Shown here piece after piece: positions 55,097 to 58,506 of a DNA stretch of 64,000 nt. Below the pieces are notes generated by a model that worked only from the letters and a program-made list of their open reading frames with translations, searched no databases and was not told where the DNA came from. How positions within the stretch are numbered: the stretch's first letter is position 1; each line of letters begins with the position of its first letter. Made by a program: the position numbers and the translations under genes. This DNA is from an uncultured Chloroflexia bacterium (GTDB lineage: Bacteria; Chloroflexota; Limnocylindria; Limnocylindrales; CSP1-4). The stretch is from contig CAWHDR010000001.1 in NCBI GenBank assembly GCA_963828165.1, positions 2,624,001-2,688,000 of the forward strand, read 5' to 3'.

Positions 55097-55549
55097 TCAG
55101 CGGCGCAACAGCCCTGGCACACTCGGCTCCGGGCCGCGCCAGCGTTCGATCTCCTCGGTCGCGAAGCGGCCGTAGTAGTTGATGAAATGGCCGCCGTGGT
55201 CACGCAGGACCGCGATGGACGCGGCCTTACGCGCGGCATCTCCGGGCTTCGTCATCACAACGGCCTGACCATCGCGGACGGCCTGCTCGTAGGTGGCCAT
55301 ATCCACGAGCTGGTCCATGAGCGTGAAGGAGACCAGGCGCCGCAGCCGGGCGATCACTCCGTTCGCGGCACCCGTGCCGTCCAATCGGTCGGCGCCTTCA
55401 GGACCGCGCAGGATCGTGATGTCCCGGTCCCGGATCGCTGCCGAGCGTAGAGCGGCGGCCGTCGCCGCGGCGGACGCGGCGTCTGGCAGCACGGCCATGA
55501 GCGAATCCGTCGGATAGCCGATGAACCGGCGCGTGGGGCTGGCTGGCAT
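55097..55549 (-). CDS. Hypothetical protein
   Basis: 150-aa ORF with protein-like composition (FIGYPTD...HGGHFINYYGRF); TACGAT -10 upstream. Confidence 0.7.
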   Translation of the reverse strand: MPASPTRRFIGYPTDSLMAVLPDAASAAATAAALRSAAIRDRDITILRGPEGADRLDGTGAANGVIARLRRLVSFTLMDQLVDMATYEQAVRDGQAVVMTKPGDAARKAASIAVLRDHGGHFINYYGRFATEEIERWRGPEPSVPGLLRR

Positions 55550-55607
55550 GGCGGGCTCATCGTAGCGAGACAGCGAACGCGGTCGTTCGCGTCGTTGTGC
55601 GCCGGAA

Positions 55608-55625
55608 GAACATGTGTTCTAAAAT
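55608..55625 (+). promoter_or_regulatory. LexA (SOS) box abutting a -10 element
   Basis: GAAC-ATGT-GTTC (55608-55619) directly followed by TAAAAT (55620-55625). Confidence 0.7.
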
Positions 55626-55658
55626 GCCCTGAGTCGGACCCGCTATATTGTTCGTCTT

Positions 55659-55745
55659 GCGGCGGTGCTGGAATTGGCATACAGGGCAGACTCAAACTCT
55701 GCTGCCCGTGAGGGCTTGTGGGTTCGAGTCCCACCCGCCGTACCA
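55659..55745 (+). tRNA. tRNA-Leu(CAA)
   Basis: Acceptor GCGGCGG/CCGCCGT, D-loop TGGAATTGGCA, anticodon arm GCAGA-CTCAAAC-TCTGC, long variable arm, GGTTCGAGTCC, encoded CCA. Confidence 0.96.
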
Positions 55746-55752
55746 GACCTCG

Positions 55753-56387
55753 ATGACCCCGGTATCCGGTGCTGCGCTGTGCCGCGCGATGCGGCCGGAT
55801 GTGCCAATGAGCGCGACCTCGGGCCCGCATATGCGTACCTACTCGGGCTCTATCTCGGCGACGGCACGCTTTCGCCTGGCCGACGGAACGTGTGGCACCT
55901 GCGAAATCAGCCTCGACGCCCGCTATCCGCAGATCATCGCTCGGGGTCAGCAGGCTAACGGCGAGGTAGGCGGGCGCCGCGTCGGCGCCACCGCACGACC
56001 CGGATGCATCGTGATCTCGAGCTATTGGAAGCACTGGGTCTGTCTGTTCCCCCAGCACGGACCCGGCCATACGCATGAGCGCTCGATCAAGCTCGAGGGG
56101 TCGGCACGAGGAGCCTGGTCGGGACGCTTCCCAGTCATTTCGCTCGGCGGCCTGATCGAGTCAGACGGATGTCGCGTCCTCGAACCGGGTGAAGGGACAG
56201 CGCCTGACCCTCGCTACTGTCTTCGTCCAGACCTCGTCCAGACCGATATCCGCGGACTTCGTCTTGGGCCGCCGGGTTGGCTGGGTGTGGACGTGGCCCG
56301 GGCCGACGGTCCGCGAACTGTCGCCGTGTCGCGGCGGAGCGAGCGTCGCGATCCTTGATCGGCTGCGTCGGTCCAGCAAGGCGTACA
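55753..56387 (+). pseudogene. Free-standing double-motif LAGLIDADG-type protein, multiply frameshifted (decay or sequence error)
   Basis: YAYLLGLYLGDG, ISLDARYPQII, SYWKHWVCLFPQHGPG, GGLIESDGCR, PRY, DIRGL, VAVSRR, SVAILD spread over different frames. Confidence 0.75.
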
Positions 56388-56503
56388 CGGACACCCCGCG
56401 ACGGTCGGAACCTGAGCCCACGGTACCCGCGTCTCGCCGACCGATGCTAGACTCCCCCCGCCTCACGTCCGCCAGCATCGCCGTCCGGAGGGACCCCCAG
56501 ACC

Positions 56504-57112
56504 GTGGAGGACCTTCGCTCGACGACGGTCACCGACGACCCCGTCCAGCGCCGCGACCTCATCCTCATCGAGCGCGCCCGATCGGGCGACCTCGATGCAT
56601 TCAACGACCTCGTCGTGCTGTACCAGGATTCGTTGTTCGCGCTGGTGGTGCGCATGGTTCCGGATCGCGACCAGGCGTCGGACTGCGTGCAGGAAGCGTT
56701 CTTCTCCGCGTACCGCAATTTGGCCTCGTTCCGCGGCGGCAGCGTCAAGTCCTGGCTGAACCGGATCTGTGTCAACGCCGCGATGGACACCCAGCGAGCC
56801 CGGAAGCGCCGGCCCGTCCAGCCGTACCCCGAGTTCGAGGACGAGAGCTGGCAGCCACCGGCCGGGGCGGAGGCCGATCCGGAGCGCACCGCGGTCCACG
56901 CCGAGCGCAGCCGGGCGATCGCGGCGGCCCTGACCCGCATCACCGACGACCAACGAGCGGCGATCGTCCTGTACGACATCGAGGGCTACGACTACGGCGA
57001 GATCGCGGAGATGACCGGTGTCTCGCTGGGCACTGTCAAGTCGCGGATCCACCGTGGCCGCCTGGCCCTGCGGGACATCCTGTCGGAGCGGATGGAGCTC
57101 TTCCGTGGCTGA
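56504..57112 (+). CDS. ECF RNA polymerase sigma factor
   Basis: GDLDAFNDLV, DCVQEAFFSAY, KSWLNRICVN, YGEIAEMTGVSLGTVKSRIHRGR; GGAGG RBS. Confidence 0.93.
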   Translation: MEDLRSTTVTDDPVQRRDLILIERARSGDLDAFNDLVVLYQDSLFALVVRMVPDRDQASDCVQEAFFSAYRNLASFRGGSVKSWLNRICVNAAMDTQRARKRRPVQPYPEFEDESWQPPAGAEADPERTAVHAERSRAIAAALTRITDDQRAAIVLYDIEGYDYGEIAEMTGVSLGTVKSRIHRGRLALRDILSERMELFRG

Positions 57113-57695
57113 TCGGATGGGTCACGCCGGGCACGATCCCTTGCTGGTCGCCGGGGCCGCGGATCGAGGCGCACGGCTCGCCCCGGTCCTGGATCTCTGT
57201 GTGCGCTGCGTCGGGCTGTACGTCGACCTGCTCGCGGTGACGGCCGCGCTGCCCATGTCGGCGGTGCCCGTGCGTCCGCGCTCGTTCACGCTGACCGCTG
57301 GTGATGCGCGACGCCTCCGGCCGGTCGGTTGGCGGGGGTGGTGGTCTGCCGTCGGCTCTGCGCGTGACACCGTGACGCGCCCGCTCGCCGTGGGCATCAC
57401 GACACTCGGCCTCGCCGGCCTGCTTCTCACCGCCGCGCCCACGCTGTCTGTGGGCCTGGGCTGGGCCGCGACCTCGAGCGCAGCGCCTCCAGAGGTCGCC
57501 AAACTCGCAGCCACACCGATGCCGAATGACCGAACGCCGATCGCATTGGCCGGCGACAACCACGAGCACGGGACCACGGTCGAGTCGGATCCGGGTCTGT
57601 CCCCGACCCTGACGCTCTCCGTCGGGCTGCTCGTGGTCGGGGGCGGGCTGTTCGTGGCCCGCCGGCTGGCCGCCCACGGACCTCCGATGCGATGA
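57105..57695 (+). CDS. Anti-sigma-like membrane protein, paralogue 1
   Basis: HAGHDP...CVRC...RPRSFTLT; two TM helices; overlaps the sigma stop. Confidence 0.72.
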   Translation: MADRMGHAGHDPLLVAGAADRGARLAPVLDLCVRCVGLYVDLLAVTAALPMSAVPVRPRSFTLTAGDARRLRPVGWRGWWSAVGSARDTVTRPLAVGITTLGLAGLLLTAAPTLSVGLGWAATSSAAPPEVAKLAATPMPNDRTPIALAGDNHEHGTTVESDPGLSPTLTLSVGLLVVGGGLFVARRLAAHGPPMR

Positions 57696-57759
57696 TGCGG
57701 ATCGACGATCGGGCGCCATGCGGGAACCACCTGGCCGTCGAGGTCGTCTGGTGGAGGAC

Positions 57760-58506
57760 ATGACGGAAGCGAATCAGCCTGCCAACCCCGCGGATCATGC
57801 CGCCCATGACCCCACATGGATGGCTGCGCTGGCTACCCGAGAACCTGATCTGAGCCCCTCCGAGCGCCCCCGAGCGGAGGCGGCGCTCGAGTCGTGCGAC
57901 GCGTGCAGGGACCTGTTCGCCGATCTCGTCGCCCTCTCGGCGGCGATCCCCGCTGCGGCGATCCCGGCCCGACCGCGTGATTTCACCCTGACCGCCGCCG
58001 ATGCGGCGCGGCTTCGGCCGCACGGTCTGCGTCGCGTGCTCAAGGCCATCGGATCGGCCCGCGACGGCGTCACGTTCCCGCTCGCCATGGGCCTGACCAC
58101 GATGGGTATCGCCGGGATGCTGCTTGCGACCATTCCGGCAGCGTTGAGCGGCACCGGCGGAGCGGCCTCAGACAACCTGTCGGCGGTGGGGCAGGCAGCG
58201 CCGATGCCAGCACCCGCATCTGCCGCCGCGGCCGCATCTGCGGCTCCTGCGGCGGAGGCTCCGGGCGCCGAGGCGACCGACGCCTACGCGTTCAGCGCTG
58301 CCCCGACCTCCGAGACGGCCGGCGGCGAAGTGTTCTCTGGAGACGATGGCGACACGGCGCTCGAAGCCCGACTGGACGCGACCGCGACGCTGGAGGCGAT
58401 CCGCGACGACGCCACGGGACGCTCGGCGCTCCTGGTGGCCGCGGCTACGCTGCTCATCGCCGGTTTGGGGTTGTTCCTCCTCCGCTGGTCCGCCCGCCGC
58501 CTCTGA
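57760..58506 (+). CDS. Anti-sigma-like membrane protein, paralogue 2
   Basis: HAAHDP...CDAC...RPRDFTLT; two TM helices; GGAGG RBS. Confidence 0.78.
   Translation: MTEANQPANPADHAAHDPTWMAALATREPDLSPSERPRAEAALESCDACRDLFADLVALSAAIPAAAIPARPRDFTLTAADAARLRPHGLRRVLKAIGSARDGVTFPLAMGLTTMGIAGMLLATIPAALSGTGGAASDNLSAVGQAAPMPAPASAAAAASAAPAAEAPGAEATDAYAFSAAPTSETAGGEVFSGDDGDTALEARLDATATLEAIRDDATGRSALLVAAATLLIAGLGLFLLRWSARRL

Follow-up and report, generated by a model that had tools for sequence, protein, structure and literature searches.

Organization of the tRNA-Leu(CAA) locus

The stretch analysed here (the window) comprises 64,000 nucleotides of the genome of an uncultured Chloroflexia bacterium, from contig CAWHDR010000001.1 of assembly GCA_963828165.1, and contains a single tRNA gene according to ARAGORN, a tRNA-Leu(CAA). 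The spacer between the 3′ end of this tRNA and the promoter-like element of a downstream extracytoplasmic function (ECF) sigma factor gene is filled by the remnant of a LAGLIDADG endonuclease gene, and a LexA-type box and two −10-like hexamers precede the tRNA (Table 1). In our preferred reading, to which we assign a probability of roughly 0.65, the remnant at positions 55746–56376 is a decayed free-standing gene for a monomeric, two-domain LAGLIDADG homing endonuclease, linked to tRNA-Leu and, when intact, timed by the SOS response.

The window has a G+C content of 70%, and the host genome amounts to 3.31 Mb in 6 contigs. The genome encodes 56 tRNAs, including five tRNA-Leu genes (one per anticodon), so that the copy in the window is its sole tRNA-Leu(CAA). 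ARAGORN and Rfam agree that this tRNA is intact, as a preliminary description of the same DNA had proposed; the sequence coordinates given there were also all correct.

We found no integrase, intein or intron at the locus, and no second piece of the tRNA of 13 nucleotides or more (E <0.3) in the window or in 31 loci of the same genus, in agreement with the absence of an intein, intron, integrase or duplicated tRNA 3′ end that had been noted before. The insertion begins exactly at the 3′ end of the tRNA, which would also suit an integrase-type island that had attached at this end of the tRNA-Leu gene and left a scar. The insert, however, is ∼0.65 kb long and holds a single gene, and neither an integrase nor a repeated tRNA end was present. 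We regard such a scar as the least probable of the explanations considered.

The endonuclease gene in the window is decayed

Judged by its sequence, the LAGLIDADG gene in the window is a pseudogene, while the tRNA and the promoter are intact. The two LAGLIDADG motifs described previously are both real and located where they had been placed, but they lie in different reading frames. The frame starting at 55746, which holds motif 1, reads ...CCAVPRDAAGCANERDLGPAYAYLLGLYLGDG; the next frame reads ISLDARYPQII...SYWKHWVCLFPQHGPGH...LGGLIESDGCRVL and contains motif 2 (LGGLIESDG) together with the SYWKHWVCLFPQHGPG segment. Further homologous pieces downstream are spread over all three frames.

The closest intact copy, in genome G118 of the same genus (genomes, loci and proteins are given by our own G, L and P numbers, with G000 carrying the window), is 83% identical to the window at the DNA level; the sigma factors encoded next to the two copies share 98.5% protein identity. 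Alignment to G118 revealed 13 indels inside the gene, 11 frame-breaking and two in-frame, instead of the single frame repair that the preliminary description had envisaged, and the invariant Lys of the family's FPQHGxGxKH segment is replaced by Thr. As it stands, the window copy cannot fold as a single chain. A tblastn search of the whole genome with all three frames found no second copy of the gene (best non-self match E 0.065). The open reading frames (ORFs) at 55648–56358 and 55665–55958 correspond to fragments of the pseudogene and do not merit annotation as genes.

We considered whether the frameshifts might be assembly errors, with the gene intact in the organism. Twelve of the 13 indels are additional bases in the window assembly, and the first, an extra A near 55904, falls in a run of A, both of which would suit such errors. 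However, the 11 frame-breaking indels are crowded into ∼630 nucleotides and none occurs in the adjacent dnaE gene (1267 amino acids, 3.8 kb), the sigma gene or the divergent 150-amino-acid ORF, all of which are unbroken; a generally error-ridden assembly is therefore unlikely. The substitution of the invariant Lys and the presence of split matches in the sister genomes G109, G141 and G134 also speak against this explanation, which we consider very improbable. The best of the sequencing runs contained a fraction of 0.13 of the sampled words of 55400–56600.

A LAGLIDADG family with an invariant signature

The longest piece of the window gene identified 92 homologous proteins at E ≤1e-3 among 533 candidates, and in intact relatives both motifs lie in one frame. 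In an alignment of 20 family members, the GDG of motif 1 and the SDG of motif 2 are invariant (20 of 20), with a catalytic Asp retained in each, and the family is further marked by an invariant segment, WKHWxCxFPQHGxGxKHxR, and a pair of Cys residues. Actinobacterial members carry an additional N-terminal helix-turn-helix (HTH) domain, HTH_23; the relatives nearest to the window lack an HTH and are ∼190–210 residues long.

Four of the six relatives tested passed the cut-off of Pfam LAGLIDADG_3 (P0003 and P0013 gave no match), Pfam identified no family in the three pieces of the window gene, and NCBIfam identified none in the relatives. The family is not named in the libraries searched and is apparently undescribed; one Streptomyces member is labelled ‘transcriptional regulator’ by NCBI.

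Sequence-only similarity to structurally solved enzymes was marginal (best match I-AniI, E 0.0037). An AlphaFold2 model of the intact relative P0003, built from the 20-member alignment, had a pLDDT of 89.7 and comprised two alpha-beta-beta-alpha-beta-beta-alpha halves. Foldseek matched this model in the PDB to an intein endonuclease, I-AniI, I-Tsp061I, I-DmoI, PI-SceI and WhiA (8dy7, 3hyj) with E ∼1e-6 and TMq 0.5–0.65, and with a probability of 1.00 for I-DmoI, I-AniI and I-Tsp061I. On the features tested, the family belongs to the LAGLIDADG superfamily, and its intact members are predicted to act like enzymes of the I-DmoI type; the two-motif LAGLIDADG identity proposed in the preliminary description is supported.

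The family is associated with tRNA-Leu genes

A scan of one genome per species yielded at least 591 confirmed copies of the gene, and the best 80 loci, which come from Chloroflexota and many Actinomycetota, were analysed further. A tRNA-Leu gene was present at every one of them and was the nearest tRNA in 78, with anticodon CAA in 68 cases, CAG in five and TAG in five. The family is tied to tRNA-Leu genes, and this association is real and general; the tRNA-Leu neighbourhood that the preliminary description had offered for Actinobacteria is borne out at 78 of the 80 loci. All four relative orientations of gene and tRNA were seen. In a quick, midpoint-rooted tree of 79 of these loci, each arrangement falls in one or a few clades, and a Chloroflexota clade (support 98) is nested among Actinomycetota. 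The two loci at which tRNA-Leu was not the nearest tRNA, L014 and L057, form a small clade (support 99) beside a tRNA-Trp(CCA) gene.

In Streptomyces, the gene was found in 107 of 151 genomes that were at least 95% complete (one, G280, unpublished), with ∼15 copies split, stopped or partial. Three Streptomyces genomes (G258, G216 and G231) contain tandem pairs, in which two full-length copies lie head to tail 44–48 nucleotides apart.

Intact, broken, relic and empty sites within one genus

Within the genus of the window genome, we located the tRNA in the same orientation in 29 of 131 genomes. Two more genomes, G021 (L087) and G010 (L088), carry a diverged tRNA-Leu(CAA) that is inverted relative to the sigma gene and has neither box nor endonuclease, for a total of 31 loci. 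The downstream DNA was readable at 27 loci, and two more end at a contig edge. The gene order in the genus is the divergent 150-amino-acid ORF, the tRNA-Leu(CAA) and the ECF sigma gene with its GGAACC-N17-CGTC element; the longer form GGAACC-N17-CGTCT precedes the sigma gene in all relatives compared, whether occupied or empty.

Between the tRNA and the sigma gene, the endonuclease gene was found in states that range from intact to absent. It is intact at ten of the 27 loci (G026, G118, G106, G124, G098, G108, G067, G154, G005 and G028) and broken at five: the window itself, G109, G141 and G134 with split matches, and G148 with fragments. Relics remain at three, comprising both ends of the gene in G065 (hmmsearch E 1e-10) and G096 and the N-terminal 35 codons in G068. 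Four loci have an extra spacer and the box but no gene, and five (G024, G093, G017, G136 and G140) are free of any trace. In the empty locus of G024, 27 nucleotides separate the CCA from GGAACC and 49 separate it from the start of sigma-region homology, and in that of G093 the CCA and GGAACC are 17 nucleotides apart; G017, G136 and G140 have other genes at the site. A series of intact, broken, relic and empty states at one site is the pattern to be expected of a homing endonuclease gene.

The median pairwise dN/dS among 12 intact copies (58 pairs, with dS saturated) was 0.18, which indicates purifying selection on the intact copies and hence their maintenance as proteins. As a separate observation, the spacers that follow the tRNA in G133 and G021 contain repeated short palindromes (TCCCGTCCCACGGGA) with the look of REP-type elements.

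A LexA-type box upstream of the tRNA

The preliminary description had pointed to an SOS box upstream of the tRNA. As a bare motif, GAAC-N4-GTTC, the Gram-positive/Chloroflexota type of LexA box, is unremarkable: it occurs once in the window against 0.56 expected (39 of 100 shuffles contained at least one), and its 67 occurrences in the genome do not exceed those of other spacings. The weight of the box therefore comes from its context. The genome contains lexA, whose promoter reads TTGACA-TC-GAACGTCCGTTC-GG-TATCAT, and 20 of the 67 boxes lie outside long ORFs with high third-position G+C (GC3); those boxes precede lexA, an imuA′-like (RecA-like) gene, dnaE2, a radical-SAM gene, uvrA and a DEAD-box helicase gene. 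The composite of a box followed after 0–3 nucleotides by TAnnnT is found at five positions in 3.3 Mb (at lexA, the imuA′-like gene, dnaE2, the radical-SAM gene and position 55608 of the window), and all five point at the downstream gene. The box in the window (GAACATGTGTTC), which abuts TAAAAT, thus has the architecture of SOS genes in the same genome.

Elsewhere in the G000 genome (C1:1849575–1855709, outside the window), an imuA′-type gene and dnaE2 each follow a TAGAAC-N4-GTTCTA sequence, in what looks like a mutagenesis cassette of this Chloroflexota genome under LexA control.

The box also accompanies the gene and its relics in the genus. Allowing for at most one mismatch, it lies 50–57 nucleotides 5′ of the tRNA at 22 of 27 loci; it is present with TAnnnT at all 15 occupied loci and at seven of the 12 unoccupied ones, including all three relic loci, and at none of the five trace-free loci. 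Its position relative to the tRNA is retained at loci that have another upstream neighbour (G028, G134, G108, G067, G154, G065, G096 and G090). In the wider set, a perfect box stands beside the tRNA or the gene at 14 of the best 80 loci, against ∼0.5 expected from genome-wide density. It overlaps the gene's own start codon at L026 and L017, lies upstream of a tRNA-Leu(CAG) at L011, L040 and L067, and lies upstream of an inverted tRNA, still 5′ of the gene, at L007, L012, L015 and L076.

A second hexamer, resembling TATAGT, is located 8–10 nucleotides 5′ of the tRNA at all 29 loci with the same orientation, whether occupied or empty (TATAGT at 22; TATATT, TGTATT, TATGAT or TATACT at seven). In the window this proximal −10 ends 9 nucleotides before the mature tRNA, so that the tRNA transcript would carry hardly any 5′ leader.

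An alternative is that the box is independent of the endonuclease and controls the divergent 150-amino-acid gene or the tRNA itself. It lies 59 nucleotides upstream of the divergent start, the tRNA is first in line for the promoter that it marks, and four of the 12 unoccupied loci have the box but no recognizable relic. On the other hand, the abutting −10 faces the tRNA strand, as it does at SOS genes of the same genome, and the box is found 50–57 nucleotides before the tRNA even where the divergent gene is not a neighbour. G024, G136, G140 and G017 have the divergent gene but neither a trace of the endonuclease nor a box, and four actinobacterial loci have the gene in the sense direction relative to the box but the tRNA in the antisense direction. 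We therefore consider a box unrelated to the endonuclease rather improbable, and conclude that the box probably marks an endonuclease promoter that runs through the tRNA and is predicted to be under LexA control.

Expression and possible start codon of intact genes

Co-transcription with the tRNA, as the preliminary description had suggested, is the only route of expression visible at these loci. The same description had placed the start at an ATG at 55753 and proposed a near-leaderless mRNA released by 3′ processing of the tRNA. That ATG does lie 7 nucleotides after the CCA, but it is out of frame with motif 1 and arises where two Asp codons (GAT GAC) adjoin; a leaderless, 3′-processed mRNA therefore does not fit.

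The frame of the gene is in phase with the first base after the CCA at 17 of 18 placed loci, the exception being G026, which has one base fewer and a GTG further in. At 14 of 17 loci, 24 nucleotides separate the end of the tRNA from the first conserved Cys codon (21, 39 and 23 nucleotides at the others), and the sequence of this stretch is very variable. Within the G-I-R-C sequence, the Gly and Cys codons show synonymous variation only (Gly as GGT, GGA, GGG or GGC; Cys as TGC or TGT), and the five sites that differ between the window and G118 in the first 15 codons are all synonymous. In five of 12 intact copies the interval that separates the tRNA from the first catalytic helix contains no ATG, GTG or TTG in frame, and nine copies lack such a codon upstream of the conserved Cys; such starts as exist are located at differing positions, and none has a Shine-Dalgarno-like sequence.

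The frame is open across the whole tRNA, and each 87-nucleotide tRNA contains an in-frame GTG or ATG at positions 7–9. Many metagenomic gene calls open with VLELAYRADSNSAAREGLWVRVPPAVP, which is translated tRNA. We tentatively raise the possibility, which we hold to be less than even, that intact Chloroflexota genes are translated from tRNA positions 7–9 (GTG, or ATG with an A at base 7). In that case the tRNA-Leu gene would itself make up the first 27 codons of the coding sequence, and the product would cover VLELAYRADSNS... In such an arrangement the LexA-controlled distal promoter would supply an unprocessed read-through mRNA, and the proximal promoter would supply the tRNA precursor. Non-canonical starts such as ATC or CTG are also possible.

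Homing endonuclease or domesticated regulator

These observations can be assembled into a cycle in which the intact enzyme would recognize DNA at or beside the tRNA-Leu gene in alleles without the endonuclease gene and cut it, after which the gene would be copied in by recombinational repair, later to decay and be lost. In the lineage of the window genome the gene would have no promoter of its own and would be transcribed through the tRNA from a LexA-repressed promoter 50–57 nucleotides upstream, with the second, proximal −10 serving the tRNA; given such a promoter, the endonuclease would be made when the SOS response, and hence RecA, is on. Homing, LexA binding and a start within the tRNA are all steps that we infer.

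Several observations weigh against this reading. The promoter calls rest on comparison between loci, because a consensus scan of 55400–56600 (which needs a −35 element) found no promoters; it found no terminators either. The box was absent from the scored span beside tRNA-Leu at all 29 Streptomyces loci of the best 80, and the four box-bearing loci of the genus that lack a recognizable relic do not follow the association of box and gene. A one-sided Fisher test on that association (15 with and none without the box at occupied loci, versus seven and five at unoccupied loci) gave 0.01, a value that is overstated since genomes of one genus are not independent. Within the genus, the gene has roughly double the dS of the sigma gene, but the values in the closest intact pair are 0.75 and 0.58, respectively, a pattern that suits vertical descent with repeated loss just as well as homing. 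The quick tree largely tracks taxonomy, the gene is common in Streptomyces, and tRNA alleles within the genus do not separate occupied from empty sites, so that no resistant target allele is visible.

Some of the same observations would suit a domesticated, WhiA-like DNA-binding protein that would act at or near tRNA-Leu genes, with the window showing a lineage-specific loss of a dispensable regulator. WhiA itself is a domesticated LAGLIDADG transcription factor of Gram-positive bacteria that is described as lacking the catalytic Asp residues and having a C-terminal HTH. It is among the fold matches, and the family resembles it both in fold and, in actinobacterial members, in the combination with an HTH. 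The N-terminal HTH_23 of those members, the ‘transcriptional regulator’ label on one of them, the single-copy occurrence at the same locus in the 107 Streptomyces genomes, purifying selection and a tree that largely follows taxonomy could all be read in this way. However, the family differs from WhiA in that it keeps both metal-binding Asp residues invariant, has its HTH at the N-terminus or (in the Chloroflexota form) none at all, is distributed patchily and includes decaying copies. Intact, broken, relic and empty states coexist at one site in one genus, Streptomyces has ∼15 split, stopped or partial copies and three tandem pairs, and the family has moved among tRNA-Leu genes with anticodons CAA, CAG and TAG and tRNA-Trp. 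Since neither catalytic Asp residue varies, and since the gene is gained, degenerates and is lost, we consider a WhiA-like regulator, which the preliminary description had kept as an option, to be unlikely, and favour the homing endonuclease.

Introns and inteins are the classical setting of homing endonucleases, and free-standing examples are known mainly from phages. Hundreds of chromosomal copies in Actinomycetota and Chloroflexota would represent a new mode of persistence for homing endonuclease genes in bacteria, in which the family remains next to tRNA-Leu genes, which are essential, and in several lineages is coupled to the SOS response. Such coupling would time the cut to RecA-dependent repair, or to the entry of foreign single-stranded DNA. 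The family would moreover constitute a natural series of nucleases with long sites, directed against conserved tRNA loci, and the read-through start, if true, would provide an unusual example of a tRNA gene that also serves as coding sequence.

Comparison with known systems

The predicted fold, the two LAGLIDADG helices, each with an acidic residue at its end, and the length of ∼190–210 amino acids liken the family to I-DmoI, I-Tsp061I, I-AniI and the PI-SceI and TliVMA endonuclease domains. Unlike I-DmoI-type enzymes, it is encoded by genes that stand alone in bacterial chromosomes, independent of introns and inteins, and it has the invariant WKHWxCxFPQHGxGxKHxR segment and Cys pair and, in most members, an N-terminal HTH. 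SOS control of mobile-element functions is known from integron integrases and from prophage repressors such as that of GIL01 (compare PMC4551915). There, as in the arrangement proposed here, a LexA box couples a function in mobility to damaged DNA or to single-stranded DNA that enters the cell.

SegB of phage T4, a free-standing GIY-YIG homing endonuclease encoded in a tRNA gene cluster, provides a model for targeting tRNA genes without breaking them: its site is reported to contain the conserved T-psi-C stem-loop motif, and flanking tRNA DNA is carried along (PMC2330249). Like the present family, SegB is a free-standing endonuclease whose gene lies among or beside tRNA genes; it differs in its nuclease fold and in residing in a phage rather than a cellular chromosome, and it is not known to have SOS control or a fusion to the tRNA. 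The WHO elements of Torulaspora (LAGLIDADG plus zinc finger) are located just downstream of an essential host gene, are neither introns nor inteins and are reported to have copies that cluster (bioRxiv 10.64898/2026.08.13.744650). The tandem pairs in three Streptomyces genomes recall that clustering. Elements of the WHO/mORF type bring a replacement part of their host gene, with a fossil or duplicated piece of that gene beside the element; at the loci of the present genus we found no fossil, duplicated or replaced tRNA piece of at least 13 nucleotides, and tRNA alleles are not sorted by occupancy.

A tRNA-Sec gene nested in the selB reading frame has been predicted in Alphaproteobacteria (Mukai 2021, PMC8124441). 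There, as in the start proposed here, one stretch of DNA would serve as both a tRNA gene and a protein frame, both cases being predictions. In that case the tRNA is located close to the 3′ terminus of a housekeeping gene, whereas here a selfish gene would draw its start codon and its first 27 codons from the tRNA. Our literature searches yielded no account of a LexA-controlled homing endonuclease or of a tRNA-Leu-linked LAGLIDADG family, and a term search of the main text of a paper on the S. venezuelae LexA regulon returned nothing for LAGLIDADG, tRNA or homing (PMC9380542).

Neighbouring genes and other features

The features of the locus are collected in Table 1.

Table 1. Positions of features at the tRNA-Leu(CAA) locus, numbered from the first nucleotide of the window.
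Feature	Positions	Strand	Basis
Divergent ORF, 150 amino acids	55097–55549	−	Unbroken; conserved in the genus
GCGAAC-N6-GTTCGC palindrome, probably a chance occurrence, outside the module	55573–55590	.	Shuffles; absent from the same place in relatives
LexA-type box GAACATGTGTTC (AGAAC-N4-GTTCT)	55608–55619	+	Position; SOS genes of the same genome; genus loci
TAAAAT, putative distal SOS promoter −10, towards the tRNA	55620–55625	+	TAnnnT abuts the box in relatives and at SOS genes
TATATT, putative proximal tRNA promoter −10, 9 nucleotides 5′ of the tRNA	55644–55649	+	Genus comparison
tRNA-Leu(CAA), CCA encoded, intact	55659–55745	+	ARAGORN; Rfam tRNA 49.2 bits versus gathering score 29
Two-domain LAGLIDADG endonuclease pseudogene, Chloroflexota form without HTH	55746–56376	+	Homologues; DNA alignment to G118
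LAGLIDADG motif 1, YLLGLYLGDG	55836–55865	+	Frame starting at 55746
LAGLIDADG motif 2, LGGLIESDG	56143–56169	+	Next frame
GGAACC-N17-CGTCT, promoter-like element of the ECF sigma gene, right limit of the insertion site	56397–56424	+	Conserved in relatives

The second palindrome upstream of the tRNA, GCGAAC-N6-GTTCGC, exists at the position reported in the preliminary description, but it is at chance level (two matches with at most one mismatch in the window, against 0.52 expected; 12 of 100 shuffles scored as high) and is not conserved in relatives. The divergent 150-amino-acid ORF matched no Pfam or NCBIfam family; its blastn matches within the genus have 70–79% nucleotide identity. On the other side of the insertion, the ECF sigma gene (∼56504–57112) is followed by ORFs at 57018–57695 and 57718–58506 in an anti-sigma-like layout, and together they look like an autoregulated ECF pair.

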